Assembly: GCA_016218805.1 (NCBI GenBank)
Contig: JACRCW010000038.1
Span: forward strand, 24,915 to 88,914
Direction: 5' to 3'
Source: Deltaproteobacteria bacterium
GTDB lineage: Bacteria > Myxococcota > JACRCW01
DNA length: 64,000 nucleotides
Shown: positions 34,216-57,628 of the stretch, piece by piece
Numbering within the stretch: the stretch's first letter is position 1
How the letters are laid out: each line of letters starts with the position of its first letter
Notes under the pieces: model-generated
Told to the model about the DNA's origin: nothing
Database searches by the model: none
Seen by the model: only the letters and a program-made list of their open reading frames with translations
Translations under genes and position numbers: made by a program

Positions 34216-34245
34216 GGCCGTCTCCGTCGCCGCACGTGCGGCGGA

Positions 34246-35019: not shown

Positions 35020-35028
35020 GACTGTCTC

Positions 35029-35244: not shown

Positions 35245-35258
35245 CGCGCGCGCTCCTT

Positions 35259-36557: not shown

Positions 36558-36599
36558 GGAGTTCTCCTCTTGCCGCGCGGGGGCGTGCCGCGCGCTTGG

Positions 36600-38173: not shown

Positions 38174-38832
38174 GGAGCCTCCGTGGGCGCGGTCATCTCC
38201 TCCGCAACCGCGACGGCGGACGAAGCGCCCATGGACGCGAGGATGGCGCCCGCCTGGCGCGCAGGAAGTTCCTTCAGCACCGCGGCGGCGACCCGGCGGT
38301 CAAGCTTCTCCAGGATCACCGCCGCCTGCCTTGGCTTCACCGTTTTCAAGCTCCGGGTCAGCGCTCCCACCTGTGACGGCGCCGGGCCGCCGCGCGCTGC
38401 CGCCGCACGCTTGGCCGGTTCGGACTCCGGCAGCGGGGGTGCGGGCGCCGCAACAGGCGGCGGCGCGGAAGCAGGACCGGGACACGCAGCCTGACGCGCC
38501 GCCAACGCCTCAATGAGGGCGGCAAGCCGGTCGCTCTCCGCGCGCAGTTGCTGCCGTGCAGTCTCCATCTGACCAACGAGTTCCGGCGCTTCCGCAGCTC
38601 CGGGCTCCCCACCGTGCGGGCGCGCGCGGGCCTGCAGCGCGGCCTGGAACGTCGCGGGGGACACGGCGGGGCGGCCCGCTGGCGGTGGGCTGTTCAGGGG
38701 CGCCACCGGGGGCGCGCCGGGCGCGGGAACCGGCGCCACGTGCGGTGCCGCGGGCGGGGTGGGCGTGGCTGTGGGCGCTGAGGCCAGCAGCCAACCGGAG
38801 CACGTCCACAGTGCAGCAAGGGGGCTAGGCAC
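38170..38832 (-). CDS. MotE/YlxF-like (MgtE_N-type) flagellar protein
   Basis: GTG 38832 lies 4 nt after GGAGGA. Signal-like N-terminus, Pro-rich spacer, coiled coil. C-terminal LKTVKPRQAAVILEKLDRRVAAAVLKELPARQAGAILASM matches the MgtE_N/MotE repeat. Confidence 0.6.
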   Translation of the reverse strand: MPSPLAALWTCSGWLLASAPTATPTPPAAPHVAPVPAPGAPPVAPLNSPPPAGRPAVSPATFQAALQARARPHGGEPGAAEAPELVGQMETARQQLRAESDRLAALIEALAARQAACPGPASAPPPVAAPAPPLPESEPAKRAAAARGGPAPSQVGALTRSLKTVKPRQAAVILEKLDRRVAAAVLKELPARQAGAILASMGASSAVAVAEEMTAPTEAP

Positions 38833-40174: not shown

Positions 40175-40881
40175 GCGTCCGTCCCTTGCAGGGCGCCGGC
40201 CACCACGCGGCGGACCTCGCGCAAGCGCGTCTCCAGGCGCGCATCCACCACGCCCATGTCTCCCTCCACCACCACGTCACCGCGGGACAGGGTCGCGTCT
40301 CCCACCAGCTCCACGTGCGCCAGGGACAGGTCGTCGTCCGCCTCGCGCACGGCGGCTTCCAACGCGGGTATGTCCAGGGGCGACACGCGCACCTTCAGCG
40401 TGCGGCTGTCCGCCAGACCGCGGATGGCGGTGCGCACCAGGCCCATCAGCGATCCCACGTTGCTGGCCACCTCGTGCTCCAGGATCCGGCGCGCCACCTC
40501 GAACCCGATCTCCAGCGCGTCGGCGCGCGCCGCCTCGGCGAGGATGTGCGCGTGCAGCTTCAGCGTCTCCAGCGCGTGCGCCACGCGCTCGGTGCCGGCT
40601 TCCCCGGCTGGCGCGGGTGGGTTCCCCGCGGCCGGCATGGCTGGCGTCTCCAGACAGGGTGGCGCCGCGTCGGTCTGCGTGTCGTCGCCAAACAGCAGGT
40701 CCGCGTCCAGGCCAGGACGCGGCGGCTCCGTCGGGGTCGGATCGGCGGAGCAGTTGCGGCGGGCGGGCTGCACCGGGTCGGGGAACGGCGGCCCGGGCCG
40801 CTCGTAGGACGGGCCGACGATACGCGGAGAGCCAACGTGGCGCTCCAGAAAGGTCGGCGTGCGAGTCATGTTGGCGACCAT
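40171..40881 (-). CDS. fliH: Flagellar export protein FliH
   Basis: 236 aa. C-terminal ...VRVSPLDIPALEAAV...VELVGDATLSRGDVVVEGDMGVVDARLETRL matches the FliH/YscL C-terminal domain. ATGA overlap with fliI. Confidence 0.8.
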   Translation of the reverse strand: MVANMTRTPTFLERHVGSPRIVGPSYERPGPPFPDPVQPARRNCSADPTPTEPPRPGLDADLLFGDDTQTDAAPPCLETPAMPAAGNPPAPAGEAGTERVAHALETLKLHAHILAEAARADALEIGFEVARRILEHEVASNVGSLMGLVRTAIRGLADSRTLKVRVSPLDIPALEAAVREADDDLSLAHVELVGDATLSRGDVVVEGDMGVVDARLETRLREVRRVVAGALQGTDA

Positions 40882-40896
40882 CTACAACCCACCTCC

Positions 40897-41910
40897 TCAC
40901 ACCATCTTGTCCGCCGGCCCGATGAGCCGGATGCGGCCTTCGCCCGCCAGGCGCATGACCACCGCGACCAGCTGGTTCTGGGCCTGTTCCACGTCGGCGA
41001 GCCGCAACGGGCCCATCGCCGCCATGTCGTCCCGCAGCATGTCCGCCGCGCGGGAGGACATGTTCTTGAAGATCTTCGCGGCGATGGCCGGCGACGCGCC
41101 TTTGAGCGCGATCATCAGCACCTTGGTGTCAAACTCGCGCAACAGCGCCTGGATGTCGCGGTCCGGCAGGTGCACCAGATCCTCGAACGTCAGCAGTTTG
41201 GTCCGCAGTTCCGCGGCGAGGTCCGCGTCGCGCTCCTCGATCCGCTTCATGAGCTCGCCCTGCTCGGCCACTGGCTTGTTGCGCAGCACGTCCAGCGCCA
41301 CCTGCCGGCCCTCCACCTTGCGCACGCCGCCCATGGTGGCCGCGCGCAGCTCGGCGGCCAGCGCCTGGCCCACCTCCTTGAGCAGCTCCGGGCTGATGGC
41401 CTCCACCTTCGCCATGCGGAACACCACCTCGGCCTGCACGGCGGCGGGCAGGCGGTTGAGCACGTTGAGCGCCTTGTCCGCATTCAGTGCGGACAAGACC
41501 AACGCCACGGTTTGTGGCTGCTCGCGGCCCAGCACCATGGCCAACGCTTCCGCATCCACACCGGAGACGGGACCCAGCGCCTCGTCGGGCGTGGGGGCCT
41601 GGGGCAGCTCCTCCAGCACGCGCGCCGCGGTATCCGTGCCCAGGCTCTCCTGCACCCACTGCCGCAGCAGCCCGTCGGCGGCCTGCCACGGCGCGGCGGG
41701 CGCGGACATCGCCGTGGAGAAGTCCTGGAGCGCCAGCGGGAGGACCTCTTCGGCAGGTCCCTTCACGCGCGCGCCCACGGCCAGCCGCCGCAGGTCCTGC
41801 TCGCTGAAGTGCCGGATGACCTCGCGGGCCGTGTCCTTGCCCAGCACCAGCAGCACCGCCATGGCGCGTTGTGCGCCCTCCCGCTCCAGCGCGGTGGTTT
41901 CAGCCGTCAT
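40897..41910 (-). CDS. fliG: Flagellar motor switch protein FliG
   Basis: EGAQRAMAVLLVLGKDTAREVIRHFSEQDL, plus a C-terminal torque helix region ...IALKGASPAIAAKIFKNMSSRAADMLRDDM. Confidence 0.95.
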   Translation of the reverse strand: MTAETTALEREGAQRAMAVLLVLGKDTAREVIRHFSEQDLRRLAVGARVKGPAEEVLPLALQDFSTAMSAPAAPWQAADGLLRQWVQESLGTDTAARVLEELPQAPTPDEALGPVSGVDAEALAMVLGREQPQTVALVLSALNADKALNVLNRLPAAVQAEVVFRMAKVEAISPELLKEVGQALAAELRAATMGGVRKVEGRQVALDVLRNKPVAEQGELMKRIEERDADLAAELRTKLLTFEDLVHLPDRDIQALLREFDTKVLMIALKGASPAIAAKIFKNMSSRAADMLRDDMAAMGPLRLADVEQAQNQLVAVVMRLAGEGRIRLIGPADKMV

Positions 41911-43495
41911 GGCGCGCCTCCGTCGTCACCGGTGCGGTTGCCGGTTCATGGCTCATCCACGTGCGCAGCACCCATGCGGCGCGCTCCGGGTCCTTGAGCG
42001 CCAGTGCGCGGGCGCGCTCCACCAGCACGCGGGCCTCAGGCGGCGCCGCCACGGCGGGAACGTCCACCACCGGGGCCGGCGCGCTGGACGTGTCCGGCGG
42101 AAGCAGCAACTCCGCGTCCACCACGCGTTGCCCCGGCCGCAGTGCGGGGAATGGGTCCACCCGACGATGCCGGCGCAACAGCAGCCACGCGAGCCCGGCC
42201 AACCCCACAACGCCCGCGCCGGCGGCGCCCAGCGTCCACGCGGGCAACGGGCTGGCCGCGGCCTCCGCAGCCTCCGCCGCCGCCCCAGACGCGGCAAACG
42301 CACTGGTGACAATCTCCACGCGGTCACCGCGGGCCTCCTCCATGCCCAGGCCTGAGCGCACCAGCGCCTGCAGCTTGCCCACGTCGGTGCCGGCGGCCAG
42401 CGCGGCCTGGTCCACAATGACGGCGACGGACTGGCGCGCCACACGCGGCTGGTGTGACCGGGTCACGGTCACGGTCTTGCCGATCTCATAGTTGCGCGTC
42501 TCGTCGGTCTGGGTGCTGGATTGCGAGGCGCCGCCGCCGGGGCTTGCCGTGACGCCCGGAGCCTGGTTGGCCGCCGCCCCCGCAATGCCGCCCGTGCGGC
42601 CGCCCTGGGTGCCGTTCTGCTGCACGTTTTGGGTGCGCTCAGAGCGGACCACGGGCGACTCGGCGTCAAACACCTCCTGCGTCACATCTTGCTCGCGCGC
42701 GTCCAGTTCCACGCTCGCCCGCGCCAGCACGCGCCCGGTACCCACCACCGGCTCCAGCAGCTCCACGGCGCGCCGTTCCAGGTCGCGCTCCAGGGCACGC
42801 TCCCGCCGAAGGGCGCCGTCGGAGCCCTCGTCCCCGGACAGCACGGCCCCCGCGCCGTCCACCACGTGGACGTTTGCGGACACCAAGCCCGGCACCGCGG
42901 CGGCCACCAGGTGGCGGATGCCGGCAAGCTCGCGCGGGTTCAGGGACAAGCCGGGGCGCAGGTTGACGACGACCGCAGCCGCCGAGGAGCGGTCATCCTC
43001 CGGGTGCAGTCCGCGTTCCGGGAGCGTGAGGTGGACACGCGCGCGTGTGACCGGGGACAACGAGCCCACGGTGCGCGACAACTCACCTTCCAGCGCCCGG
43101 CGCAGGTTCACCTTCTGGGTGAACTGGCTCACACCCATGTCGCCCTTGTCGAACAACTCGAAGCCGACGTGCCCGGCGCGCGGGATGCCCTGCGTGGCCA
43201 GCAGCAGCCGGGCGTCATGCACGCGGTCCGACGGAACCAGGATGGCGGAACCGCCGGCCTCCAGGCGGTGTGGGATGCCGGCGGCGCGCAGCGTTACGGC
43301 GGCCTCCTGGCCGTCCTCCTGCGCCAGGTTTGTGTACACGTACGCGTCGCGGGAAGCTGCCAGGTCGCGCACAGACGCGGCCAGGCCCGCCAGGAGTGCC
43401 AGCGCCGCCCCCACGACAATGAGCGTGCGCGTTGGGGCGGGCAGGGCCCTGAACGCGGCGGGAAGTTGCCTGAGCTGCCTGAGGAGCGGTTCCAT
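41900..43495 (-). CDS. fliF: Flagellar MS-ring protein FliF
   Basis: 531 aa. N-terminal TM helix, LTLPERGLHPEDD, RNYEIGKTVTVT, and a second TM helix near the C-terminus. Confidence 0.93.
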   Translation of the reverse strand: MEPLLRQLRQLPAAFRALPAPTRTLIVVGAALALLAGLAASVRDLAASRDAYVYTNLAQEDGQEAAVTLRAAGIPHRLEAGGSAILVPSDRVHDARLLLATQGIPRAGHVGFELFDKGDMGVSQFTQKVNLRRALEGELSRTVGSLSPVTRARVHLTLPERGLHPEDDRSSAAAVVVNLRPGLSLNPRELAGIRHLVAAAVPGLVSANVHVVDGAGAVLSGDEGSDGALRRERALERDLERRAVELLEPVVGTGRVLARASVELDAREQDVTQEVFDAESPVVRSERTQNVQQNGTQGGRTGGIAGAAANQAPGVTASPGGGASQSSTQTDETRNYEIGKTVTVTRSHQPRVARQSVAVIVDQAALAAGTDVGKLQALVRSGLGMEEARGDRVEIVTSAFAASGAAAEAAEAAASPLPAWTLGAAGAGVVGLAGLAWLLLRRHRRVDPFPALRPGQRVVDAELLLPPDTSSAPAPVVDVPAVAAPPEARVLVERARALALKDPERAAWVLRTWMSHEPATAPVTTEARHDG

Positions 43496-43514
43496 CGCGC
43501 GGCCCTTTCGCGGC

Positions 43515-43796
43515 TCAGACGCTCATCCGCATGACGTCGTTGTACGCCTCTACGGCCTTGTTCCGGACCTTGATGGCCAGCTTCATGGCGATGTCCGCCT
43601 GCTCCACGGCCAGCGCCGCCGTGTGCAGGTTGCCCTCGCCGCGGGCCAGCTTGACCGCTTCGCCCTCAGCGCGGGCCTGCCCCTCCTCCAACGCGCGCAA
43701 CTCCTGGGCGAACGACGGGCCGCCGGCCGCCGCGTCCTGCGGGCGGTCGATCACGGGGGGACGCACCTCGGTAAACGCGGGGGCTTTGATCAACAC
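43515..43796 (-). CDS. fliE: Flagellar hook-basal body protein FliE
   Basis: 93 aa. C-terminal LAVEQADIAMKLAIKVRNKAVEAYNDVMRM is the FliE signature. GTG start after AAGGAG. Confidence 0.85.
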   Translation of the reverse strand: MLIKAPAFTEVRPPVIDRPQDAAAGGPSFAQELRALEEGQARAEGEAVKLARGEGNLHTAALAVEQADIAMKLAIKVRNKAVEAYNDVMRMSV

Positions 43797-43808
43797 GGTG
43801 CGTCTCCT

Positions 43809-44237
43809 TCAGCGCATGATGTCCAGCGCGCGCTGTGCCAGTGCCTTCACGGTTTCAAACGCGGTCGCGTTCGCCTCGTACGAGCGCGTCGCGCCCAACA
43901 GGTTCACCACCTCATGCACGGGGTCCACGTTGGGCAGCGCCACAAACCCCTGGCCGTCCGCATCTGGATGTCCTGGCAGGTACACGCGGCGCGGGGCCCC
44001 GGGGTCTTCCACCACGTCTGCCACCCGGACGCCCACGGGCGCCTCGGGACCCATCACCTGGCCCAGCGCGCCCTCAAACGACGCCGCCTCCAGCACCGGG
44101 TCGCGGCGGCGGTAGGGCTGGCCGTCCGCTCCGCGCGTGCTCTCCGCGTTGGCAAGGTTGGCGGTGGCAATGTCCAGCCGCGTCCGCTGCGCGGTGAGGC
44201 CGGAGGCGCTGACCTTGAGGGCGGAGAAGAAGTCCAC
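43809..44237 (-). CDS. flgC: Proximal rod protein FlgC
   Basis: FSALKVSASGLTAQRTRLDIATANLANAEST and C-terminal HEVVNLLGATRSYEANATAFETVKALAQRALDI. Confidence 0.95.
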   Translation of the reverse strand: MDFFSALKVSASGLTAQRTRLDIATANLANAESTRGADGQPYRRRDPVLEAASFEGALGQVMGPEAPVGVRVADVVEDPGAPRRVYLPGHPDADGQGFVALPNVDPVHEVVNLLGATRSYEANATAFETVKALAQRALDIMR

Positions 44238-44248
44238 GGGTAGCCTCC

Positions 44249-44653
44249 TCAGCTGTTTCCATCGCTGGCGACGTAGCGCAGCAGGGCCAGGTGCCGCTGG
44301 GTCACCCGGGCGGCAGCCGCGTACTGCAGGGCGTTCTCCGCCAGGACCGCCATGGTGCGGTCCAGGTCCACGCGGTTGCCGTCCAGTCCCGGTGCGCGCG
44401 CGGGCCCGTCGATGATCGGTGCCGGGCCGCCCTCATCAGGCAGCCCCAGTTCCAGGTGCCCCGCGTGGCGTGGGACGGCGGCCACGGCCATGCGGCCCGC
44501 CGGCCCCGCCAGACCCGCCGCCAGGTCCACGTCAACGGGGGAGAAACCCGGAGTGTCCAGGTTCGCCACGTTGCTGCCCAGCACTTCCTGCCGCTGCAGC
44601 CGCACGTCCAGGCTGCGCTCCAGGCTGTCCACGACGGGTCCGATCACGCGCAT
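44249..44653 (-). CDS. flgB: Proximal rod protein FlgB
   Basis: ATG 44653 follows GGAGG. LDVRLQRQEVLGSNVANLDTPGF and C-terminal AVLAENALQYAAAARVTQRHLALLRYV. Confidence 0.9.
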   Translation of the reverse strand: MRVIGPVVDSLERSLDVRLQRQEVLGSNVANLDTPGFSPVDVDLAAGLAGPAGRMAVAAVPRHAGHLELGLPDEGGPAPIIDGPARAPGLDGNRVDLDRTMAVLAENALQYAAAARVTQRHLALLRYVASDGNS

Positions 44654-44744
44654 GACCCGCCTCCATGCCAGCCGCATGCCGGGCCAACACGCGCAGAAGG
44701 CCTGCGGGATGGGGCCGGATCGCCATCCCGTCGACGGAGCGGCG

Positions 44745-46118
44745 TCATTTCCGTGGCACCTGCGGTCCGTCTGCCGACAACGTGGCGGCACGGGCAGTCA
44801 GGGTCCTGGCAAGCGCCAGGTCCAGCAGCGCGCGTCCTTCGGCCGCGGGGGCCGCAGCGGTGGCAACGGGCGGAGCGGCGGGCGGGGCCAGCAGCGCCTG
44901 GTCCAGGGCCGGCCAGGGCGCCCGGCGGGTGACCCGCGCGCCCAGTTCTTCCTCGGCCCAGTCTCGCACCGAACGGGCGCGCACCCGGTCGCCGTCAGCC
45001 AGGAAGAGTTCCACGACACGGGCCAGGTGTGGCGCCAGGGCTTGCCGGGGCACGGAGGCGGTGTGGTGCGCGAGCAGCGTCGCTCCCAGCGCGGGCACCC
45101 CCAGGGACGCCAGCCGCTCTGCCGCAGCGCGCGCCGCGTCCAACGCCAGCGGGGAGGGTTCCTCCAGCGCCACCAATGCCAGGTACGCTTCCAGCGCGGC
45201 CACCTGCCGGGGTTTGTCCGTGCCGGCGGTTCCCGCCAGGCCCCGCGCCAGGATGGCGTGGCAGGCGCTCCAGCTGCCTGCACACGGCCGCGCAGCCACC
45301 TCACTCCGGGCCGCCAGGTACAACGCCCCGTCCTCCGGGCGGGCGGACAGCAGGGCGCGCGCGCGCGCGATGCGCAACGCCAGCAGGGGCTGAATTTCCG
45401 GGGGGGCGCTCACCAGCGACGGCGGCACTCCGCCGACGACGGGAGCGCACTCGCCGCCCAGCTCGCACCGGGCCACGCGCACCAATGCCAGCCAGCGCCC
45501 GGTGCCAAACGCACGCTGGTACCACAGCAGCGCCTTGCCTGGTTCGCCCGCCTCCTCCGCCAGCGACCCCAGCAGCACCGCCGCTTCCGCGGCGTCCGGC
45601 CCGTCCACGCGCGCCAGCGCCCGCGCGGCATCCGACACGCGGCCGGCGTTGAGCGCACACGCGGCGCCCGCCAGCGCGGATGACCCGCCACAGCGGGCGC
45701 CGGTGACCAGTGCCGACCATAGCGACGGCAGGCGCCAGTGCAGGAGGTCCCGTGGGACGCCCCGGAGCGCCTGGATGTCCAGGTAGGTGCGGCCGCGGCG
45801 CCGGGTCAGTGCCACGTGCAACCGGTTGTGCACGCAGTGCAGCACCGCGGCCCCCCCGGACACCTCCGCGCGGGGACACAACGCGGACCGCGCGCGCACC
45901 GCGGCCACCACGCGGCCGGACGCGCCCGCCGCGTGGACCGTGACGGTGGAGGTGATGGCATCCACCGCCACGGGAACCGTAGGCGCCACGTCCACCGCGA
46001 GCGCCTCCAGGTGTTCCACGGACGTCAGCAGCGCGTTGCGCTGCACGCGGTGGCCTGGTGGCCACGGCAGCGCGGCCGCGCCTGCCACCACCAGCAGCGC
46101 CAACGCCGAGGTGATCAT
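44745..46118 (-). CDS. Hypothetical secreted protein (signal peptide, beta-rich N-domain, Ala/Leu-rich helical-repeat C-domain)
   Basis: 457-aa ORF. ATGA overlap with the upstream sigma-54 activator; ends 91 nt before flgB. N-terminus [17 protein letters not shown]. Multiple Cys residues and a TPR-like segment (AAVLLGSLAEEAGEPGKALLWYQRAF). I recognise no family. Confidence 0.6.
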   Translation of the reverse strand: MITSALALLVVAGAAALPWPPGHRVQRNALLTSVEHLEALAVDVAPTVPVAVDAITSTVTVHAAGASGRVVAAVRARSALCPRAEVSGGAAVLHCVHNRLHVALTRRRGRTYLDIQALRGVPRDLLHWRLPSLWSALVTGARCGGSSALAGAACALNAGRVSDAARALARVDGPDAAEAAVLLGSLAEEAGEPGKALLWYQRAFGTGRWLALVRVARCELGGECAPVVGGVPPSLVSAPPEIQPLLALRIARARALLSARPEDGALYLAARSEVAARPCAGSWSACHAILARGLAGTAGTDKPRQVAALEAYLALVALEEPSPLALDAARAAAERLASLGVPALGATLLAHHTASVPRQALAPHLARVVELFLADGDRVRARSVRDWAEEELGARVTRRAPWPALDQALLAPPAAPPVATAAAPAAEGRALLDLALARTLTARAATLSADGPQVPRK

Positions 46119-47263
46119 GCCGCGTGCGGCGCCGCGCCCGGAAGCATGGGCTCCGCCTCTTCCTCGCCGCCACGGCGCGCCGGCGCACCCGCCGCGCGTT
46201 CACGTCGGCGCAGCTTCTCCACCAGCGTGGTGCGCTGCAAGCCCAGCATGTGGGCGGCCAGGCGCTTGTTGCCGTGGCTTGCGGACAACGCGGCGTCCAC
46301 CATCACCGTCTCAAACCACTCCAGCAGCTCCGGCATCCGGCGCGGCAGACCGTGGCGCTCCAGGACGCCGCTCAGCGCGCCGCGGAACTCGCCCAGGGCT
46401 TCCTCACCGGAGCCGGCCAGCGGCATGGTCGGCGGGACGGGCACTGCCGGGGTCAGCGTGGCCGGCACCGGGGTGACGGACAGCACGCCGCGCAGCTGCG
46501 GAAACTGCGCCAGGTCCGCCAGCGTCACCGTCCCGGACTCCACAATCACGCTCATGCGCTCGACCAGGTTCTCCATCTCGCGCACGTTGCCCGGCCAGCT
46601 GTAGCGGCACAGCGCCTCCACCACGGCCGCGTCCACCGGGCGGTCCTGGCCGCGCTCCGCCCAGAAGGTCTGGAACAGCAGCGGCACGTCCATGGGGCGC
46701 GCGCGCAGCGGAGGCAGCTCCACCGGGCACACGAACAGCCGGTAGTACAGGTCACGGCGGAAGCGGCCGGCGGCGGCGTCCGCCTCCAGGTCCCGGTGCG
46801 TGGCGGCGATGACCCGCACGTTGGTGGCCACGCTCTCCACGCTGCCCACCGGTTCGTACGCGCGCTCCTGCAGCACGCGCAGCAGCTTCACCTGCATGGC
46901 CAGCGGCAGTTCGCCCACCTCGTCCAGGAACAGCGTGCCGCCCTCCGCCGCCGCAAACCGCCCCTTGCGGTTGCGCGTGGCGCCGGTGAACGCGCCGCGC
47001 TCGTAGCCAAAGAACTCGCTCTCCAGCAGTGTCTCCGGGATGGCGCCGCAGTTGACCGGGACAAACGGGCCGGACGCGCGCGAACTGTGCTCGTGGAGGA
47101 ACCGCGCAAAGACCTCCTTGCCCGTGCCCGTCTCGCCGGTGAGCAGCACGGTGGAGTCGCTGCGGGCCACGCGCGCGCAGATGTGCAGCAGCGCGGCCAC
47201 GGGGGAGGACTCAGCGTGGATGATGCGCGGGGCGCGGAAATGCGTCCGGGGGAGGTTCTCCAT
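46115..47263 (-). CDS. Sigma-54-dependent transcriptional activator lacking a receiver/sensor domain
   Basis: 382 aa that starts directly in the AAA+ core: [24 protein letters not shown] loop (ERGAFTGA), [20 protein letters not shown]-terminal Fis-type HTH ([20 protein letters not shown]). Confidence 0.9.
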
Positions 47264-47268: not shown

Positions 47269-48369
47269 CTACTCCTGGACACCGGCAAGGGTCAGTGACC
47301 GGCGGAAATCTGTGGGAGACGCAGCGTGCAGCGCGGCGTGGTCCGCGGCCACCAGGCCCTCCCGGACGAGCGCCATCAGCGACTGGTCAAACGTGTGCAT
47401 GAGCTGCTCGTTGGACTTCTCCAGCACTTGCGGGATGCCGGAGACCTTCTGCGGGTCCCGGATGGCTTCCTTGATGCGGTAGTTGTTCACCAGCACTTCC
47501 GTGGCCAGCACACGCTGGCGCAGGCCCCGGCGCTGCAGCAGCAGCTGGCTGATGGAACCGCGCAGGCAGTCCGCCAGGCGCGCGCGCACCGCCGGCTGCT
47601 CCACGGGAGCGTGCATGCCAATGATCCGCTGCACCGTCTTGAGCGCGCTGCCTGTGTGGAACGTGGAGAACACGGCGTGGCCGCTCTCCGCCGCGTGCAT
47701 CACCACCTCCAGCGTCTCCGTGTCCCGGATCTCGCCAATGAACATCACGTCCGGGTCCTCGCGCAGCGCCGCCTGCAGCCCCTCGCGGAAGGTGGGCACG
47801 TCCCGGCCCAGCTCGCGCTGGGTGACGCAGGACCGTGTGCCCTGGAAGCGGTATTCGACGGGGTCCTCCAGCGTGAGGATGTGCAACGTCTCCTGGGCCG
47901 CCATGTGGTGCAGCATGGACGCCAGCGTTGTGGACTTGCCGCTGCCGGTGGCCCCCGTCACCAACACCAGGCCGGGTTCCGCCGTGGCCAGCGCCTTGAC
48001 CACCGGCGGCAACCGCAGTTCCTGGAACGCAGGCACGCGGAACGGGATGGCCCGCAGGCACACGCCCAGCTGCGCGCGCTCGCGGAACGCGTGCACGCGG
48101 AAGCGCGCGGTGTTGGCCTGCTCATAGGAATACTCAAAGCTGGAGGCGCCCGCAGGGACGGGCGTGTCACCCACGGTGAGGCGGATGACCTCCTGCACGG
48201 TGGCCGCGCTGAGCGGTGGGCACTCCAGCCGGATCAGCTGGCCGCCGGCACGCATGAACGGCGGCGCGCCCGTGCGCAGGTGCAGGTCCGACCCGCCGTG
48301 CGTCACCACCGCGGTGACCAGCTGGTTGAGCAGGTCCACGGAGGTGCTGATGGGGATGGCCACGCTCAT
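47269..48369 (-). CDS. PilT-family (type IV pilus retraction-type) hexameric ATPase
   Basis: 366 aa. Walker A GATGSGKST, Asp box/Walker B DPDVMFIGEIRD, His box GHAVFSTFHT, and a C-terminal NNYRIKEAIRD PilT-like motif. The stop lies 5 nt before the activator ATG. Confidence 0.85.
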   Translation of the reverse strand: MSVAIPISTSVDLLNQLVTAVVTHGGSDLHLRTGAPPFMRAGGQLIRLECPPLSAATVQEVIRLTVGDTPVPAGASSFEYSYEQANTARFRVHAFRERAQLGVCLRAIPFRVPAFQELRLPPVVKALATAEPGLVLVTGATGSGKSTTLASMLHHMAAQETLHILTLEDPVEYRFQGTRSCVTQRELGRDVPTFREGLQAALREDPDVMFIGEIRDTETLEVVMHAAESGHAVFSTFHTGSALKTVQRIIGMHAPVEQPAVRARLADCLRGSISQLLLQRRGLRQRVLATEVLVNNYRIKEAIRDPQKVSGIPQVLEKSNEQLMHTFDQSLMALVREGLVAADHAALHAASPTDFRRSLTLAGVQE

Positions 48370-48419: not shown

Positions 48420-49541
48420 TCACCCCGCCAGGCGCGTGACGACCCGCACCTGCTGTCCGGCGGGCACTCCGTATCCCACCAGGCGGTCCACCAGGCCCGG
48501 TGTCACCTCGTGCCCGCGGGCCACCAGCAACACCCCGCTGGGGCCGCGGATGTCCTCCACCAGCGCCATCCCCGGGCGCAGCTCCACCAGCCGCACCTCC
48601 AGCACACGCTCCGCCGCACGCGCCCCGCCGGAATCCAGGAACGCGTCCAGCACCTTGGGATCGTACAACCCGTGGCGGTCGCGCAGCGTCGCCGCCACCG
48701 TGGCCGCGTCCAGCCCGCGCGCCTCCAGCACGTCGTAGTCCAGCGCCACCTTCAGGATGCGCGCCCCCAGGCACGGCGGTCCGGCGGGGTCCTGCAGTGA
48801 CTGCTCCATCCCCTCCAAAGCCGCCCGCACTGCCTCCATACGCGGGAGCTTCTCCAGCAGCTCCGCCGCCACGCGCGGCACGTGTGCCACCTGGCGCTGC
48901 TCGTCCACGGACAGCGGCCGGCCCAGGTAATGCCGCTCCGCCGTGGCCGGCGGCAGCGTGATGCAGCCCACCTGGGACAGCAGCGCCGCCACCTCAATGG
49001 TCCACGCGTCCGTGAGCTTCAGCCACGCTGCCGTGCGCAACGCGTGGTCCTTCATGCGCGCCGCCCGCCCAAACCCCACAGGGCTGGCCAGCGCCAGCAC
49101 GTCCGCCAGCATCTTCACTGCGCCGCGCAGCGTCTGCTCCAGCAGCACCCGCTCCGCCGTCACAAGCCGGTGCTGCTCGGCGCCCGCCAGCATGGCTGCC
49201 ACCAGCTGGTCCGGCGGGCAGGGCTTGGTGAGGAAGCGGAAGATGTTGCCCTCATTCACCGCTTTGATGGCCGCGTTCATGTCCGTGTAGCCGGTCAACA
49301 GCATCCGCACCGTGTCCGGCGCCGTCTCGCGGACGCGGGACAGCAGCGTCGCCCCGTCCATCCCGGGCATGCGCATGTCCGACAGCAGCACCGCAAAGGG
49401 CCCGTCGCGCGCCACCACCTCCAGCGCCTGCGGGCCGCTGGTAGCGCTGTGCACGTCAAAGCGGCGCCGCAGGTGCAGCGTCACGCCGTCAATAAGCGCC
49501 TGCTCGTCATCCACCAGCAGGACCCGCGGCAGCACGGTCAT
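48420..49541 (-). CDS. Response regulator: receiver + degenerate HD-GYP-like output domain
   Basis: REC: VLLVDDE...LLSDMRMPGMDG...FLTKP. The output domain aligns to HD-GYP, but AALLSQVGCITLP replaces ..HDIGK.., and I saw no HHE/GYP motif. ATGA overlap with the upstream gene. Confidence 0.7.
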   Translation of the reverse strand: MTVLPRVLLVDDEQALIDGVTLHLRRRFDVHSATSGPQALEVVARDGPFAVLLSDMRMPGMDGATLLSRVRETAPDTVRMLLTGYTDMNAAIKAVNEGNIFRFLTKPCPPDQLVAAMLAGAEQHRLVTAERVLLEQTLRGAVKMLADVLALASPVGFGRAARMKDHALRTAAWLKLTDAWTIEVAALLSQVGCITLPPATAERHYLGRPLSVDEQRQVAHVPRVAAELLEKLPRMEAVRAALEGMEQSLQDPAGPPCLGARILKVALDYDVLEARGLDAATVAATLRDRHGLYDPKVLDAFLDSGGARAAERVLEVRLVELRPGMALVEDIRGPSGVLLVARGHEVTPGLVDRLVGYGVPAGQQVRVVTRLAG

Positions 49542-50755
49542 GGCGCCACGCCTCCCAGCTCGCGCTTGGCAATGGCCAGCCACGCCTCCAGTTGTTGCTC
49601 GCCCATCCCTGCGGCCGCCAGCCACTCCGGGTCGGGACCCGGGGCGGGGTCCCCGGGGAACAGGTGCGCCGTGGCCAGCGCGGCGCCCACGTGCACCGCC
49701 TCGGCCACGCCAAACTCATCCCGCCGCAGGCGCCGCGCATCGTGGTGGAACGCCACCGCTTCGACGATGGGATACGGCAGGCCCCACAGCCCCAGCAGGT
49801 AGGCACCCTCTTCGGCATGGCTGAAACCGTGCTGGCGGACCTCCACCGCCCACGGTGGAATGCCCTCCTCCGCGGCCGTGGCGTGGATCAGGGACCAGAT
49901 GGCAGGGCGGCGCGTGGCGGCCACCAGGTCGCCAATGTCATGCAGCAGACCCGCCGTGAAGGCGTCATTGGCGGCCGCCGTCTGCGTCAACAGGCGGCGT
50001 GACACGGCGGCCGTGGCCAACGCGTGGCGCTGGAACGCGTTGGGGTCAAACCCCGCCGCCGCCTCGCCGCCGCGCATGGAGTGGAACACGTCCAGGGACA
50101 GCGCCAGGGACCGGATCATGTGGAGCCCCAGGTACGCCACCGCTTCCTGCACGGACGTGACGGGGCGGGCCAGCCCAAAGAACGCCGAGTTCACGACGTG
50201 GAGAACCCGGGCGGCCAGCGCCACGTCAGATTCCACGATCCCAGCGACGTCCCTGGCGGACACACCGGGGTCCATCAACGCCTGGGTGAGCGCCTGATAG
50301 GTCCGCGGCACCGAGGGCAGCGTGGACACCTCGCCCATGCGCTCGCGCAGCGTCTCATCCTGCAGCAGGTTCTGCAGGTCACAAGCGCGCTGCACCACCG
50401 TCTTGAGGTGCGCCGGGTTGCAGGGCTTGGAGAGGAACTGGTGCGCTATGGGCACCGCGCGGATGGCGGAGGCCATGTCCGCGTGCCCGGACAGGATGAT
50501 GCGCGCGGACCGCGGCGAGCGCGCCTGCACCGCCTTGAGCAGCGCGGACCCGTCCATGCCGGGCATGCGCATGTCGGACACCACCACGTCAAAGGCGGTG
50601 CGCTCCATCAATGCCAGCGCCGCCTCGCCCCCATCGGCAAAGTGCATCTCCCAGGCGCCCCGCTGGGACCGCAGCAGGTCCCGCAGGCCGTGCAGCACGT
50701 GCGGTTCGTCGTCCACAAACAGTACCCGCCGGCGGGTGACCAGGGGCGCGCTCAT
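49538..50755 (-). CDS. Response regulator: receiver + HDOD domain
   Basis: REC: VLFVDDE...VVSDMRMPGMDG...FLSKP. HDOD-like: LPSVPRTYQALTQALMDP..., VLHVVNSAFFGL, LLHDIGDLV. Confidence 0.8.
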   Translation of the reverse strand: MSAPLVTRRRVLFVDDEPHVLHGLRDLLRSQRGAWEMHFADGGEAALALMERTAFDVVVSDMRMPGMDGSALLKAVQARSPRSARIILSGHADMASAIRAVPIAHQFLSKPCNPAHLKTVVQRACDLQNLLQDETLRERMGEVSTLPSVPRTYQALTQALMDPGVSARDVAGIVESDVALAARVLHVVNSAFFGLARPVTSVQEAVAYLGLHMIRSLALSLDVFHSMRGGEAAAGFDPNAFQRHALATAAVSRRLLTQTAAANDAFTAGLLHDIGDLVAATRRPAIWSLIHATAAEEGIPPWAVEVRQHGFSHAEEGAYLLGLWGLPYPIVEAVAFHHDARRLRRDEFGVAEAVHVGAALATAHLFPGDPAPGPDPEWLAAAGMGEQQLEAWLAIAKRELGGVAP

Positions 50756-52350
50756 GACGGCTCCGCCCGCCCGTGCACGGGCAGGTGCACGTGGAACGTG
50801 GTCCCCTTCCCCAACTCGGAATCAAAGTGGATGCGGCCGCCATGCTTGTCCACAATGATGCTCCGCGCGATGGCCAACCCCTGGCCCGTGCCCTTGCCCA
50901 CCTCCTTGGTCGTGAAGAACGGGTCAAACACGCGGCTGCGGATGGCCTCGGGAATGCCCGTGCCGGTGTCGGCAATGCTGATGTGCACGTGGTCGCCCTC
51001 CAGGCGGCTGCGCACGGTGATGCGCCCGCGCGCGCCCGTGGCCTTCATCACGTCACCCACGGCGTGCGCCGCGTTGACCAGCAGGTTCAGGAACACCTGG
51101 TTGAGCCCGTTCACCCGGCAGATGACCGGCGGCAGCTCGCCCAGGTCCTGTTCCACGTCCGCCACGTACTTGATCTCATTCCGCGCGACGACGAGCGTTG
51201 CCTCCAAGGCGCGGTTCAGGTCCGTGCTGGTGGGCGCATCCCCGCCCGGGTGCCCGAACTCCTTCATCGCCCGGACAATGGTTGCCACGCGCTCCACGCC
51301 GTCCAGCACGCGCGTCACCGCGGCGGGCGCGCTCTCTTCAATATAGGGCACGTCCAGGGCCGCTTCGCCCTCTTTCAGCGCCGCCACCTCCGCGGGGAGG
51401 CCCTCCCGCACACGCTCGGCGAAAGCCCGGTAGCGCCCCAGCATGGCAATGAGGTCACCCAGGGCGCCGCCCAGGAAATGCGCGCTGTCACCGACAAACT
51501 GGATGGGCGTGTTGATCTCATGCGCAATGCCCGCCGCCAGCGTCCCAATGGCCACCATGCGGTCAGACTCCAGCAGCCGCGTCTCCAGCTGGCGGCGCTC
51601 CGTCAGGTCTCCCACCGTGCCCAGCACCGCCGGTCCGCCGTCAAAGAAAGACGGGATGAGCGACACTTCTGCCAGCATCACCGCACCGGTGACGCGCACC
51701 AGGCGCCACTCCTGTGACAGCGGCTCCCGCCCGTCGCCCGCGGCCGCCAACGCGGCGGCCACTGCGTCGCGCTGGTCGGGCACCACCAGGTCCAGAACCG
51801 GTCGGGTCAGCAGCTCGGCCTGGTCGGTGTAGCCCAGGGACTGCACCAGTGACGGGTTCACGTACACAAACCGGCCATCACGCTGGACCGCGATGCCAAT
51901 GGGGAGATGATCCGTCAGCGCATGGAAGCTGGCTTCCCAGGCGCGCTGTTTCTCCGCGGCGCGGCGGAACGCGCTGATGTCCCGCTGGATGGTGACCAGG
52001 TTGGTCGTCCGTCCGTCGCGCCCGCGGACCGGGGAGGTGGTGCAGCGGGCCAGGTAGGGCTCCCCGGATGCGCGCAGGCACCACATTTCGCCGTGCCACG
52101 CGCGGCCGGCCCGCAGGGTCTCGGCAATGACGGCCACATCCTTGGAGGTGGTCAGCGGGGACACCAGGGTCATGCAATCCACTCCCAGCACCTGCTCCAG
52201 GGAGAAGCCGGTGAGCCGGTACCAACTGTCATTGGCATAGACAATGTGCCCATCCGCCGTGGTGATGGTGATGGCATCATCCACGCTGTCCAGTGCCGCC
52301 GCCTTCACGGCGGGGTCACAGGCGGTCTGGCACGGCGGGACGGCATTCAT
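50752..52350 (-). CDS. Cytoplasmic PAS-PAS sensor histidine kinase
   Basis: Two PAS-like segments. H-box GIAHEINTPIQFV; N/G boxes NLLVNAAHAV, DTGTGIP and GKGTGQGLAI. No TM segment seen. Confidence 0.85.
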   Translation of the reverse strand: MNAVPPCQTACDPAVKAAALDSVDDAITITTADGHIVYANDSWYRLTGFSLEQVLGVDCMTLVSPLTTSKDVAVIAETLRAGRAWHGEMWCLRASGEPYLARCTTSPVRGRDGRTTNLVTIQRDISAFRRAAEKQRAWEASFHALTDHLPIGIAVQRDGRFVYVNPSLVQSLGYTDQAELLTRPVLDLVVPDQRDAVAAALAAAGDGREPLSQEWRLVRVTGAVMLAEVSLIPSFFDGGPAVLGTVGDLTERRQLETRLLESDRMVAIGTLAAGIAHEINTPIQFVGDSAHFLGGALGDLIAMLGRYRAFAERVREGLPAEVAALKEGEAALDVPYIEESAPAAVTRVLDGVERVATIVRAMKEFGHPGGDAPTSTDLNRALEATLVVARNEIKYVADVEQDLGELPPVICRVNGLNQVFLNLLVNAAHAVGDVMKATGARGRITVRSRLEGDHVHISIADTGTGIPEAIRSRVFDPFFTTKEVGKGTGQGLAIARSIIVDKHGGRIHFDSELGKGTTFHVHLPVHGRAEPS

Positions 52351-52676: not shown

Positions 52677-53069
52677 TCACGGAACGTAGAAGATGGGCTC
52701 CCGCATGGCCACAAAGACCCCAATCGCCTCCGCGTCCCCCGCCGTCAGGCCCAGGAAACGCAAGCCAACGCCCGGCAGCAGGTCATCCGTGGACACGTCC
52801 GGTTCCCGGCGCCAGCGCACCTCTGCCTGGCAGCGGACGCGTGCGCCACCCGGCAGCGAGAAACTCAGCTCCACCGCGGTCCCCACCGCCGGCAACTGGT
52901 CAAACAGGGTCACAAACAGCCCGCCGGTAGACACGTCAAACGCAAACCCGCCGTAGAAGTTGGACTCCGAATGGAGATCCACCTCCGCGGTCAGGCGCAC
53001 GCGCGCGGCAGTGCGGCTGTCGGGCACGGCAGGGGCCACGGTCACATCAGATGGCGACGTATCCGGCAT
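52677..53069 (-). CDS. Single-domain PilZ protein (c-di-GMP receptor type)
   Basis: 130 aa. RTAAR (RxxxR) followed by DVSTGG (DxSxxG). C-terminal PGVGLRF...REPIFY. ATG follows GAGGTG. Confidence 0.75.
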   Translation of the reverse strand: MPDTSPSDVTVAPAVPDSRTAARVRLTAEVDLHSESNFYGGFAFDVSTGGLFVTLFDQLPAVGTAVELSFSLPGGARVRCQAEVRWRREPDVSTDDLLPGVGLRFLGLTAGDAEAIGVFVAMREPIFYVP

Positions 53070-53089
53070 CAAGCACCTCAGTTCCGGGC

Positions 53090-54691
53090 TCAGCCCGCCG
53101 CCAGGATGGCAGTGCGCGTGTCCACGCCCGCCGCGGGGAGTTCAATGGTGACCAGTGTTCCGCTCCCCGCGGTGGACCGCAGCGTCATGCGGCCACCGTG
53201 CTTCTTGATGATGTTCCGGGACACGGCGAGCCCCAGGCCCAACCCCTGGCTGACCGGTTTGGTGGTGAAGAACGGGCTGAACACGCGGGACACCAGCGCC
53301 TCCGGGATACCGCGTCCGTTGTCCTTGACCTCCACCACCACGCTGGAACCGCGCTGCATCCCCCGGATGGTGATCTGACCGGCAGCGTTGCCGTCCATCG
53401 CCTCGCCCGCGTTTGCCAGCAGGTTCACCAACACCTGCACCAGGTCACCCGCGGTGCCGCGCACTTCCAGGTCATTGGGCACCTCCACCTTGACGCGCGC
53501 CTTGCTCCGCAGCGTGCCCGCCGCAATGCGCACGGCGGACTGCACCGCCACATCCAGGGGCAGCAGCGCGTCCGGCTCGTCCAGGTTCATGCGCGCCAGC
53601 GCGTGCAGGTCCCGGACAATGTCCCGCACCTTCCCGGCGCCGCTCTCCGCGTCGCGCAGCGCGCTGCGGATTTCATCCAGGTTGGCGGCCGGGCGCCCCA
53701 GCTGCGCCAGCGCGTACTGCACGTTGTTCAGGACGTATGAAATGGGATTGTTCACGTCGTGCGCCACGCCAGCGGCCATCTGCCCCACGGTGACGTACTT
53801 GTCGGCCGCCCACACGCGCTCGCGGATGTCCTGGGTATCCAGCGCCAGTGCCGCCTCCGCGGCCAGCAGTTCGGCGCGGCGCAGGTCCTCGTCGCCAAAC
53901 TCGGACTCCACGCGGATGCGGTTGAGGCACAGCACGCCGCGCAACTCGTCCTGGTGGACCAGGGGGACCACCAGCGCGGAGCGCATGCGGCCGTTCAGCG
54001 CCCCCAGCGTGGCCGCGTCCGGGTCCAGCCCCGCCAGGCTGGTGGCTCCCAGCCGCCCGTCGTTGACCAGCACGGTGCGGCGTTCCAGCGCCGCGCGCCC
54101 GGCAATGCGCTGGCCCAGCTGGGTGAAGTTGTCGTCGCGCGCCCCGGGGGAGCAACGGACGGAATGCGCTACGTAAAGCCGGTCGTCACCCAGCGTGGGC
54201 AGCATCAGGCAACCGTCATCCGCCGCCAGGTACCGCAGCGCGGTCTCCAGAATGCGCCGGTGCAACTCCGCCGCGCCCACGCTGGCCAGCAGCGTGGCCA
54301 ACGCATTGGGGCCCGCGGACATCCGTTGCTCGTGGCGGGCCATGGCCCGTGTCAGGGCGGGGGACAGCGCAGGCTCCGCGGCGTCCCCCGGGATGACCGC
54401 CAGCACACCCGCCTGCACGCACCACAGCGCCAGCGGCGGGTCCAGCTCCGGCACGCCCAGCACAATGTCCAGGTCTGCGTTGGCCGCGCGCGCGGCCTCC
54501 AGCCAGCGCAAGGCGGGCGCCGCACCGGCCGCCGCGTCCACCCGGAGCACCACCGCATGCACCGGTGCATCTGTGCCGGTGGGGACGGCGTCTAGCAGGG
54601 ACTCCACGCAGCGCGCGTGGACCCGCCCGGTATCCAGCACCTTCAGGACCGCGTCACGCCACGCCGCACAACCCGCCACGAGGAAGTTCAT
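53090..54691 (-). CDS. GAF-domain sensor histidine kinase with N-terminal receiver-like region
   Basis: H-box GVAHDVNNPISYV, then NLLANAGEA, DNGRGIP and GLGLGLAV. The central region is GAF-like. The start overlaps the upstream EAL gene by 38 nt, so the start is uncertain. Confidence 0.75.
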   Translation of the reverse strand: MNFLVAGCAAWRDAVLKVLDTGRVHARCVESLLDAVPTGTDAPVHAVVLRVDAAAGAAPALRWLEAARAANADLDIVLGVPELDPPLALWCVQAGVLAVIPGDAAEPALSPALTRAMARHEQRMSAGPNALATLLASVGAAELHRRILETALRYLAADDGCLMLPTLGDDRLYVAHSVRCSPGARDDNFTQLGQRIAGRAALERRTVLVNDGRLGATSLAGLDPDAATLGALNGRMRSALVVPLVHQDELRGVLCLNRIRVESEFGDEDLRRAELLAAEAALALDTQDIRERVWAADKYVTVGQMAAGVAHDVNNPISYVLNNVQYALAQLGRPAANLDEIRSALRDAESGAGKVRDIVRDLHALARMNLDEPDALLPLDVAVQSAVRIAAGTLRSKARVKVEVPNDLEVRGTAGDLVQVLVNLLANAGEAMDGNAAGQITIRGMQRGSSVVVEVKDNGRGIPEALVSRVFSPFFTTKPVSQGLGLGLAVSRNIIKKHGGRMTLRSTAGSGTLVTIELPAAGVDTRTAILAAG

Positions 54692-55856
54692 TCCCGTCGC
54701 CCCTCTCGTCCCGCCCCTGGGTGGAAGCCACCAGCACTGGACCCGGCAATTCCAGCGTGGGACGTCCAAAGTGGTACCCCTGCAGCAGGTGTGCGCCGCT
54801 CGCCCGCACCACCTCCGCCTCCTCCTCGCATTCAATCCCCTCGGTGATGACCGTGGTCCCCGTGGCCTCACCAAAGCGGCACAGCATCTCCAGCAGGCGC
54901 CGCTTGCGCGGGCTCTGGTGCACGTTGCGCACAATGCTCATGTCCACCTTGAGGAAGAGCGGGTCCAACTCGGCCAGCACGCTGAGGGAGTTGTAGCCCG
55001 ACCCTACGTCATCCACCGCGATGGGGAACCCGCGGTCACCCAGCAGCTTCACGCTGGTCTCCCACTGCTCCAGCTCCGTGACCGCGCTGCGCTCGGTGAT
55101 CTCCACCACAATCCGCCGCTCCGCGCCGCGCCAGTGGTCCAGGCGCCGCCGCAACGCCTCGGTATCCTCCAGTTCCCGCGGGTGCAGGTTGACAAACAGC
55201 CGCACGTCCGGTGGCACCTTCTCCATCCACGCGCACGTGAGCCGCGCCACCGTCTCCGCCACGTCCGCCACCCGGTCGCAGCGCTCGGCCGCGTCCAGGA
55301 TCTGCATGGGTCCCTTCAGCACCGGATGCGTGCTGCGCAGCAGCAGTTCGTACGCAAACAGCTCACTACCCATCGCCTGCACAATGGGCTGCACGGCCAG
55401 CCGTGCGGCGCCGGCCAGTGTTTCGGTCAGGGCCTGGTGCAGCGCTGCATCCGCCTCCCGCGCGCGCAGCCCCAGCAGCGTCTCCATCTGCCGGTGCGCG
55501 TGCAGTGACTCATCCACCATGCGCGTCAGCTGCGCCTCATCAAACGGCTTGGTCAGGATCCGCGTCACTTCCCCGCAGTTCACCGCCTCCGTGAGCATGG
55601 GGACGGCCAGGGAGCCGGACATCAGCACCCGCGCGCACGCGGGCTGCTTCAGGCGGATCTCGTTGAGCACCCACAGCCCGTCCGGCGGCGGGATGCCGTA
55701 ATCCACCAGGGCCACGTCAAACCGGTCCTGCGCCAGCGCCGCCACCGCGCCCAGGCCGTCCACCGCACTCCGCGGCCGGTGCCCTCCCGCCGCAAGGATC
55801 CGCTCCACCATCCGGCACAGTTCGGGCTGGTCATCCACCACAAGCACGGCGGCCAT
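54654..55856 (-). CDS. Response regulator: receiver + EAL phosphodiesterase domain
   Basis: REC: VLVVDDQ...VALVDYGIPPPDG...ILTKP. EAL motifs YELLLR, FVNLH, VVEITER, AVDDVGSGYNSL, FLKVD, ITEGIE and LLQGYHFGRP are all present. Confidence 0.85.
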   Translation of the reverse strand: MAAVLVVDDQPELCRMVERILAAGGHRPRSAVDGLGAVAALAQDRFDVALVDYGIPPPDGLWVLNEIRLKQPACARVLMSGSLAVPMLTEAVNCGEVTRILTKPFDEAQLTRMVDESLHAHRQMETLLGLRAREADAALHQALTETLAGAARLAVQPIVQAMGSELFAYELLLRSTHPVLKGPMQILDAAERCDRVADVAETVARLTCAWMEKVPPDVRLFVNLHPRELEDTEALRRRLDHWRGAERRIVVEITERSAVTELEQWETSVKLLGDRGFPIAVDDVGSGYNSLSVLAELDPLFLKVDMSIVRNVHQSPRKRRLLEMLCRFGEATGTTVITEGIECEEEAEVVRASGAHLLQGYHFGRPTLELPGPVLVASTQGRDERGDGNELPRGGLCGVA

Positions 55857-55938
55857 TGGCGCCTCCTGACCCGGAACCTGCCCCGGCCGTCCTTCCTAAT
55901 CGGCCGTGCCCGGTCCGCGGATAAGGGCCGCCGCCCGA

Positions 55939-57414: not shown

Positions 57415-57577
57415 GGCCGCGCATCCTGTCGCGCGGGACCGCGGTTTGCCAATGCCCCGCGGCTGCGTGGCCGCGCGGCCGCACGCCGGGCAGCGCGAGG
57501 CCCGCGCGCCACGCGCAACAGGGTGACTCACCGCCCCCAGCCTCAGTGATCCCGCCGATCTCCGCGCTGCGGGGATC

Positions 57578-57593
57578 TGGCCCCGCGCGTGCT
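57578..57593 (+). promoter_or_regulatory. Candidate sigma-54 (-24/-12) promoter upstream of second fliA-like gene
   Basis: TGGCCCC-GCGC-GTGCT with correct GG-N10-GC spacing, about 35 nt upstream of the proposed TTG start. Divergent from the NtrC-type regulator. Confidence 0.45.
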
Positions 57594-57628
57594 CTGGGCG
57601 CTTGCACCACGTGCCCCAGAGGTGTCCC

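Follow-up and report, generated by a model that had tools for sequence, protein, structure and literature searches.

To our knowledge, all characterised PilT-family proteins work on type IV filament machines or, in the case of DotB, on a type IV secretion machine, and the known links that coordinate pilus and flagellum are transcriptional or operate via cyclic di-GMP (c-di-GMP). Some orphan PilT paralogues modulate retraction (PMC13584747), while others are of unassigned role (PMC5065972, PMC6060248). Here, we describe a PilT/PilU-family ATPase of 366 amino acids that is encoded on the minus strand at 47269..48369 of a 64-kb stretch of contig JACRCW010000038.1 from a Deltaproteobacteria bacterium (the whole stretch is called the window in the following). 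The gene stands at the head of a ~45-kb minus-strand flagellar cluster, and the clade of PilT proteins to which it belongs is repeatedly found in such clusters. Judged from sequence, this would be a familiar enzyme family in a conserved setting for which we found no description: the full-text literature searched contained no PilT-family gene conserved in flagellar clusters, nothing relevant on PilT in connection with sigma-54, flbD/motA or a flagellar regulon, and nothing that joins HDOD domains and PilT.

That the ATPase is a bona fide member of the PilT family is firmly supported. The coding sequence runs from an ATG at 48369 to a TAG at 47269-47271 and contains all hallmark motifs listed in an earlier annotation of this DNA (the original prediction): GATGSGKST (Walker A), DPDVMFIGEIRD, GHAVFSTFHT and IKEAIRD; LEDPVEY is present as well. 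The start at 48369 is backed by the alignment of homologues, which have the same start position; a longer open reading frame (ORF) beginning with a GTG at 48774 was rejected, as it adds a low-complexity extension and overlaps the upstream gene. With the PilT/PilU model TIGR01420 the protein scores 364.9 bits (cut-off 319.1), residues 14-353 matching profile positions 2-342 of 343, and it falls below the cut-off of each of the models for DotB (127.1, cut-off 463.3), TraJ (138.3, cut-off 368.3), GspE and PilB. Bit scores decrease from PilT (262) to PilU (204) and DotB (125), and the C-terminal extension of PilU is absent. Both these comparisons of hidden Markov models (HMMs) and the phylogeny described below uphold the proposed assignment.

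The structural data agree with this. PilT4 (PDB 5zfq) matches residues 9-360 of the ATPase with E=6e-77, and both 5zfq and 6ojx align across its whole length. The AlphaFold2 (AF2) model (predicted local distance difference test, pLDDT, 88.7; predicted template modelling score, pTM, 0.83) has the two-domain fold of PilT with an N-terminal PAS-like domain and a RecA-like C-terminal domain; Foldseek aligned it to PilT4 (6ojx_A) with a TM-score of 0.90 and a root-mean-square deviation of 2.0, and PilU and DotB scored lower. Neither the structure match nor the model reveals an insertion or an extra domain. The Pfam matches are confined to the T2SSE core (residues 124-279) and to generic P-loop families, and the N-terminal 110 residues align to the N-domain of PilT. 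The Pfam scan found no c-di-GMP-binding MshEN/T2SSE_N domain at the N-terminus, and there is no direct support for the earlier suggestion that the ATPase itself senses nucleotides or c-di-GMP: only its neighbours are c-di-GMP-related.

The catalytic residues K145 (Walker A), E168/E172 (Asp box), E213 (Walker B) and H238 (His box) are invariant in 20 clade members and, because of this invariance, we expect that the ATPase is probably catalytically active; it would be expected to form a hexamer. The AIRNLIRE motif is defining for PilT proper. At this position the ATPase reads YRIKEAIRD (clade consensus xxKECIRD): the I-R-[DE] core is retained, and the remaining positions differ in the clade but are conserved in a pattern of their own. 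The GC content at third codon positions is 0.92, the same as for the neighbouring genes, indicating that the gene is native.

Within the family, the ATPase is a member of a distinct clade, and this is equally well supported. A homologue search identified ~45 proteins with 47-66% identity (310-542 bits), followed by a long plateau of ordinary PilTs at ~43% identity and ~285 bits. In a neighbour-joining (distance) tree the homologues form one clade, apart from the PilTs of Pseudomonas, Marinobacter, Rubrivivax, Sorangium and Geobacter and from a sister clade. Residues specific to the clade are H93 (RGHAFRE), E79-Y80, C181, TFHT, ATEVLVNNY, KE[CA]IRD and ERSxDQxMHTFDQ. The clade is small, as a profile search of 1.84 billion representatives (50% clustering) returned only about ten single-domain entries above the PilT plateau. 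Most entries of this search are generic PilTs or tandem double-PilT fusions; its top-scoring representatives (P0253, P0255-P0260) are such fusions of 700-1000 amino acids, with high scores that result from two summed domains.

All named clade members are metagenome-assembled genomes (MAGs) labelled 'Deltaproteobacteria bacterium' or Archangiaceae, and the assemblies that carry the clade include GCA_044230055.1, GCA_038206395.1, GCA_046766215.1 and ERZ25039495. Among the matches listed there was neither an Anaeromyxobacter-named clade member nor a protein of Myxococcus xanthus within the clade, and a pilT in the flagellar cluster is not mentioned in the supplementary material of the genome paper on 2CP-C; the cultured relatives (Anaeromyxobacter) may lack this gene. 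The window itself has a GC content of 70.8%. Its FlhA shares 61-64% identity with proteins of Anaeromyxobacter dehalogenans, A. diazotrophicus, Vulgatibacter and Myxococcota MAGs, which places the organism in the Myxococcota.

A genetic tie between the clade and flagellar clusters is likewise firmly supported. We tallied 16 independent contexts, the window and 15 further ones; the relatives are all on high-GC metagenome contigs and, as these contexts come from one high-GC lineage, they are not fully independent. In 13 of the 16 contexts (window included), flagellar genes are in or beside the ATPase locus. As a control set we used 80 generic pilT loci (mean 15.4 kb) among the matches listed by a profile search of genome contigs with the full-length clade alignment; the back-translated patterns of this search were generic PilT motifs, and the matches listed are all canonical PilTs with 36-44% identity. 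Flagellar and HDOD genes were sought in these loci by the same blastx test: no control locus has a flagellar gene (0/80) and none has an HDOD gene (0/80). The difference in flagellar linkage has a Fisher's exact p of 1.4e-13, with the positive contexts coming from one lineage, and it bears out the view that this is not a textbook arrangement. The clade loci were checked for pil genes by their Pfam annotations, and 14 loci were examined as DNA for a second pilus-type ATPase gene, which was found in 0/14 of them and in 22/80 control loci. In none of the loci examined is the clade ATPase gene accompanied by a further pilus-type ATPase gene or by a recorded pil family.

Within the flagellar clusters, the ATPase gene is found at three or more distinct positions. 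In the window and in locus L091 the order is ATPase, a sigma-54 activator that lacks a receiver domain, an unknown protein and flgB; in two further loci the ATPase is nearly adjacent to this activator, with either an HDOD gene on the other strand (L094) or flbD-motAB (L002) in between. Five loci (L002, L089, L090, L092, L095) have the ATPase directly upstream of (flbD-)motA-motB, flbD being recognised by Pfam in L002, L089 and L090; in these three loci, which have gene calls, the gaps between ATPase, FlbD and motAB are 7-46 nucleotides. The ATPase follows fliC-fliD-fliS, together with a ~100-amino-acid ORF and at times a glycosyltransferase, in L001, L006/L007/L093, L089, L095 and L097, and it follows flhA-flhF-flhG-fliA in L096; in P0010, fliC-fliD-fliS is ~7 kb away. 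The 18-kb contig of L088 has no structural flagellar gene, but has a PilZ gene directly upstream of the ATPase and also encodes REC-HD_5 (REC, receiver) and HDOD-HD proteins and a partial homologue of the activator. No flagellar genes are within 10 kb of the ATPase in L003 and L005, which belong to a derived subclade nested within the clade tree; an Archangiaceae MAG is also part of this subclade. In both of these loci, a small ORF of 54-56 amino acids overlaps the stop codon of the PilT-like gene (L003 11083-11253, L005 11086-11250).

The test set in the original prediction, conservation in relatives, is therefore mostly passed: it applies to the flagellar linkage and the absence of pil clusters in the loci examined, while the direct pairing with the activator is limited to the window and L091. 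Across the loci, the proteins of the clusters have diverged to 35-68% identity, and the divergence of the ATPase is similar to that of the core flagellar proteins. Since the linkage has survived rearrangement at several positions, selection is favoured over inheritance of a single insertion. Three loci encode a protein of 744-785 amino acids with no Pfam family between flgL and the flagellin gene (L001 1518-3779, L006 4747-6981, L097 2958-5315), which is absent from the window.

HDOD genes are found within three genes of the ATPase in the window, L001 (on both sides), L002, L089, L090 and L094, and ~4 kb (four genes) away in L088. With the exception of the L002/L090 pair (55%), these HDOD neighbours are 25-31% identical to each other, so that the association is one of domains and not of a conserved gene pair. 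Single receiver domains (L006, L090), PilZ (window, L088) and GGDEF (L091) also recur near the ATPase.

In the window, the ATPase gene is followed by the gene of the sigma-54 activator (46115..47263, minus strand; 382 amino acids), which consists of an AAA+ domain (Sigma54_activat, residues 17-181, E=2e-69) with Walker A and GAFTGA at residue 90, and of HTH_8 (residues 314-353). The junction reads ...CAG GAG TAG CCCCC ATG and agrees with what had been predicted: five nucleotides separate stop and start, and AGGAG lies over the last ATPase codons. Because only 16 residues precede the AAA+ domain and the ORF has no earlier start codon, the activator is truly receiver-less, as had also been claimed. 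In L002, L091 and L094 the flgB operon begins with a homologue of 53-58% identity, and there is a partial copy on L088. The rank of class-I master regulator that the original prediction gave to this protein is an assumption, as the window encodes a second sigma-54 activator, with a receiver, at 55939-57885 (minus strand); its ~170 N-terminal residues have no Pfam match.

The activator gene overlaps by ATGA (46115-46118) with the gene of an unknown protein of 457 amino acids (44745..46118, minus strand), which is followed by flgB in the order originally described. The 457-amino-acid protein has no Pfam or NCBIfam family and a weak TPR_16 match; it has a signal-like N-terminus and, in the alignment made from the loci, eight invariant cysteines and the motif GGACPGDTPA..EC. 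Homologues are at the same position in L002 (14037-15272), L089 (19269-20567, minus strand), L090 (12947-14176) and L091; a word-based homologue search returned a single relative. By its sequence features the protein is probably periplasmic, and it may be a lineage-specific periplasmic protein of the flagellum.

Upstream of the ATPase are three genes on the same strand, with the ATGA overlaps and the 50-nucleotide gap that had been noted; the two proteins listed there as response regulators are, more precisely, REC-HD_5 and REC-HDOD. The REC-HD_5 protein (48420..49541; Response_reg and HD_5) is encoded 50 nucleotides upstream of the ATPase; its HD-GYP-like domain is degenerate, with neither the HD nor the GYP motif, and it is probably non-catalytic. 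A similar protein is encoded on L088. The REC-HDOD gene (49538..50755; HDOD E=3e-53, Response_reg) overlaps with it at 49538-49541 and with the gene of a PAS-PAS histidine kinase (50752..52350; PAS_9, PAS_4, HATPase_c) at 50752-50755. The kinase gene is the first of this overlapping string and is preceded by an intergenic region of 326 nucleotides. A terminator scan gave one weak match inside the REC-HDOD gene and no other between these genes, and the sigma-54 promoter pattern is not enriched in the window (7 matches, 9.8 expected). As promoter and terminator scans were uninformative, the operon structure is deduced from spacing only; on this basis, co-transcription of the ATPase with the adjoining genes is plausible, and the ATPase is probably expressed together with the flagellar genes. 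Further upstream on the minus strand are the genes of a PilZ-domain protein (52677..53072; E=3e-12) with RTAAR and DVSTGG (RxxxR/DxSxxG) intact and, at 53090..57885, of a GAF histidine kinase, a REC-EAL protein (54654-55856) and the second sigma-54 activator (all by Pfam).

Our inventory of the flagellar cluster is based on Pfam scans of most predicted ORFs in the 64 kb, including nearly all large ones. The cluster is complete and extends on the minus strand from fliS at 11671 to flgB at 44656. The first structural gene of the early operon is flgB (44249..44656; Flg_bb_rod); it is followed by the flgC/fliE region (43515-44240; named from its position and its similarity to loci with Pfam Flg_bbr_C and FliE) and then by fliF, fliG, fliH and fliI. 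A stator operon, flbD-motA-motB, is at 33445..35244 (FlbD E=8e-20; MotA and MotB matches). Within 11671..44240, Pfam further identified fliS, fliD, fliC, flgL, flgK, flgI, flgG, flgF, flhG, flhF, flhA, flhB, fliR, fliP, fliN, fliM, fliL, flgE and flgD, with a flgM-like gene and an M23 peptidase listed between flgK and flgI; the FlhG/FleN-type ATPase is at 23679-24566, and a fliA-like sigma factor was recognised directly from the sequence. Downstream of fliS, likewise on the minus strand, are an ORF of ~88 amino acids without family (11408-11674) and the gene of a ParA/MinD-like ATPase (10351-11409), and the far end of the cluster has the gene of a GGDEF diguanylate cyclase (9324..10820; E=6e-41, GGEEF motif); a homologue of the latter with 50% identity is encoded divergently beside the ATPase in L091. 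The ParA-like ORF, taken from stop to stop, overlaps the 5' extension of the GGDEF ORF, and the gene starts are provisional there. The flagellar cluster is thus flanked by c-di-GMP-related proteins: PilZ, REC-EAL, GGDEF and the non-canonical REC-HD_5. Outside the cluster, at 330-5356 on the plus strand, there are two HGD-D and two BcrAD/BadFG genes (Pfam); this set resembles a 2-hydroxyacyl-CoA dehydratase or benzoyl-CoA reductase and suggests an anaerobic metabolism of this myxobacterium.

We tentatively favour the reading that the ATPase is an active retraction-type motor that is expressed with the flagellar genes and couples pilus retraction to swimming. The ATPase would dock on the platform of a type IVa pilus whose genes lie at another site of the genome, and would drive retraction; flagellar control of this motor would then couple retraction to the assembly or rotation of the flagellum, as a mechanical switch of the motility mode, and the adjacent receiver, HDOD and PilZ proteins would gate the ATPase by two-component and c-di-GMP signals. 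Receiver proteins are known to control pilus ATPases in the Pil-Chp system of P. aeruginosa (PilG and PilH). Among the functions suggested in the original prediction, the motility-mode switch appears the most plausible. A pilus target is favoured because Anaeromyxobacter, to which FlhA assigns the nearest relatives in culture, has a type IVa pilus cluster as well as a flagellar cluster of 55.7 kb (PMC2330069). The organisms of the clade would probably have pili too. L003 and L005, nested in the tree and yet non-flagellar, fit a function that is not tied solely to the flagellum. PilT binds PilC with the face formed by its N-terminus and can carry a second, stacked hexamer (bioRxiv 10.1101/2025.10.30.685630); PilT paralogues encoded outside the pil clusters of M. 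xanthus affect pilus motility (PMC13584747), and a receiver encoded in the flagellar cluster of Xanthomonas pulled down PilT (PMC9218911).

Several observations weigh against a pilus retraction motor. As the original prediction had noted, PilB/C/M-Q, pilin and secretin families are absent among the ORFs Pfam-scanned across the 64 kb; no pil family is recorded in the Pfam-annotated clade loci, and the 14 loci examined as DNA have no second pilus-type ATPase gene. Lack of linkage to pil genes is also common among canonical pilT genes. The AIRNLIRE motif of canonical PilT is half conserved (KEAIRD, in the clade KECIRD), and no sigma-54 or sigma-28 promoter was convincing when the intergenic regions of the window were inspected. 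The evidence consists entirely of genomic context, taken from metagenome contigs of a single lineage, and the direct flbD-motAB adjacency in five loci fits a stator-related role equally well. In such a role the ATPase would be a co-opted accessory of the flagellum, a hexamer at the flagellar base that acts on the stator (MotAB/FlbD), the C-ring or the export gate independently of pili, as a brake, clutch, remodelling or disassembly motor with the HDOD and receiver proteins as its regulators. We regard this main alternative as somewhat unlikely, even if much of the same evidence speaks for it: the position directly upstream of motA-motB, with FlbD in between in three loci and gaps of 7-46 nucleotides, the flagellar linkage in 13 of 16 contexts with no pil family or second pilus-type ATPase nearby, and clade-specific changes at positions that other PilTs conserve, the AIRNLIRE region among them. 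There is also a precedent in the PilM/PilN/PilO cage around the stator of Helicobacter pylori (PMC10823254). On the other hand, the literature searched does not report a PilT-family protein in a flagellar motor, L003 and L005 have no flagellar genes within 10 kb, the ATPase carries neither an inserted segment nor an added domain that could point to a new interface and, with no Anaeromyxobacter-named member among the matches listed, it may not be part of every myxobacterial flagellum.

Two further explanations have to be considered. The original prediction had proposed the ATPase as a partner or anti-activator of the receiver-less activator, and such an anti- or co-activator could supply the control that a receiver would otherwise give, in the way that PspA controls PspF. 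The spacing of five nucleotides and the shared ribosome-binding region in the window, the same gene order in L091, the near-adjacency in L094 and L002 and the lack of a sensory domain in the activator are all consistent with this. However, the ATPases of L001, L006, L089, L090, L095, L096 and L097 are not beside the activator, and in L090 the flgB operon has no activator there, yet the ATPase is present. Moreover, FlhG/FleN is the anti-activator of flagellar activators in Pseudomonas and an ATPase of this type is already encoded in the window, and we know of no precedent for an interaction between PilT and an activator. The proposal thus suits the window and L091, but with most relatives lacking an adjoining activator we consider it very unlikely. 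Distinctly unlikely, though less so, is that the linkage is historical and without functional coupling, the ATPase being a spare PilT paralogue or an HDOD/receiver-linked signalling ATPase with another target. The positive contexts all belong to one high-GC lineage and are not phylogenetically independent, orthology among the HDOD neighbours is not clear, unusual surroundings are common for orphan PilT paralogues, such as the recA operon for Geobacter pilT1 (PMC5065972), and myxobacterial PilT homologues have been described as 'randomly distributed' (PMC6060248). Against this, the linkage persists at three or more positions across ~50% protein divergence, which argues for selection, it contrasts with 0/80 controls, and the short same-strand gaps to flagellar genes suggest shared transcripts.

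A retraction motor that is kept by selection in flagellar clusters would mean either a direct post-translational coupling of the two motility systems or a new cytoplasmic part of the flagellar motor. If the ATPase is a flagellar accessory, it would be the first pilus motor ATPase that works in a flagellar motor, and the second flagellar takeover of pilus parts after the PilMNO proteins of H. pylori. In either case, the clade offers a handle on the function of orphan PilT paralogues and on the HDOD domain, which recurs beside the ATPase and for which we know of no established partner.

Of the known systems, PilT itself is the closest. The window ATPase is of the same family as Geobacter PilT4 (6ojx/5zfq) and P. 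aeruginosa PilT (3jvv) by HMM, with ~38-45% identity over the full length, and shares the two-domain fold as well as all four nucleotide-binding motifs. It differs by its separate clade, with KE[CA]IRD in place of AIRNLIRE and with H93, EY79-80, C181 and ERSxDQxMH, and by the position of the clade genes in flagellar clusters instead of near pil genes; retraction by this protein is a prediction. PilU, M. xanthus MXAN_0415/6705/6706 and Geobacter PilT1-3 are likewise extra PilT-family genes away from the main pil cluster, but none of them is reported in a flagellar cluster, and the window ATPase scores lower with PilU than with PilT. The H. pylori cage resembles our case in that components of a type IV pilus meet flagella: PilM/PilN/PilO surround the MotAB stator (PMC10823254), and the clade ATPase gene often directly precedes flbD-motAB. 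The cage, however, consists of alignment-complex proteins in an organism without pili and was seen by cryo-electron tomography, while our data concern an ATPase and its gene order. DotB and TraJ of type IVB secretion are hexamers with a PilT fold on a non-pilus machine; their fold is related (TM-score ~0.76), but the window ATPase scores far below both cut-offs, and type IV secretion genes are absent near the ATPase. MrpJ and PapX are cross-regulators of motility encoded in fimbrial operons. Similarly, rpoN2-pilRX sit in the flagellar cluster of Xanthomonas (PMC7170775). In both cases the logic is the same as proposed here, a gene in the cluster of one motility system that controls the other; while those genes encode transcription factors, the product here is a motor ATPase that would act post-translationally.

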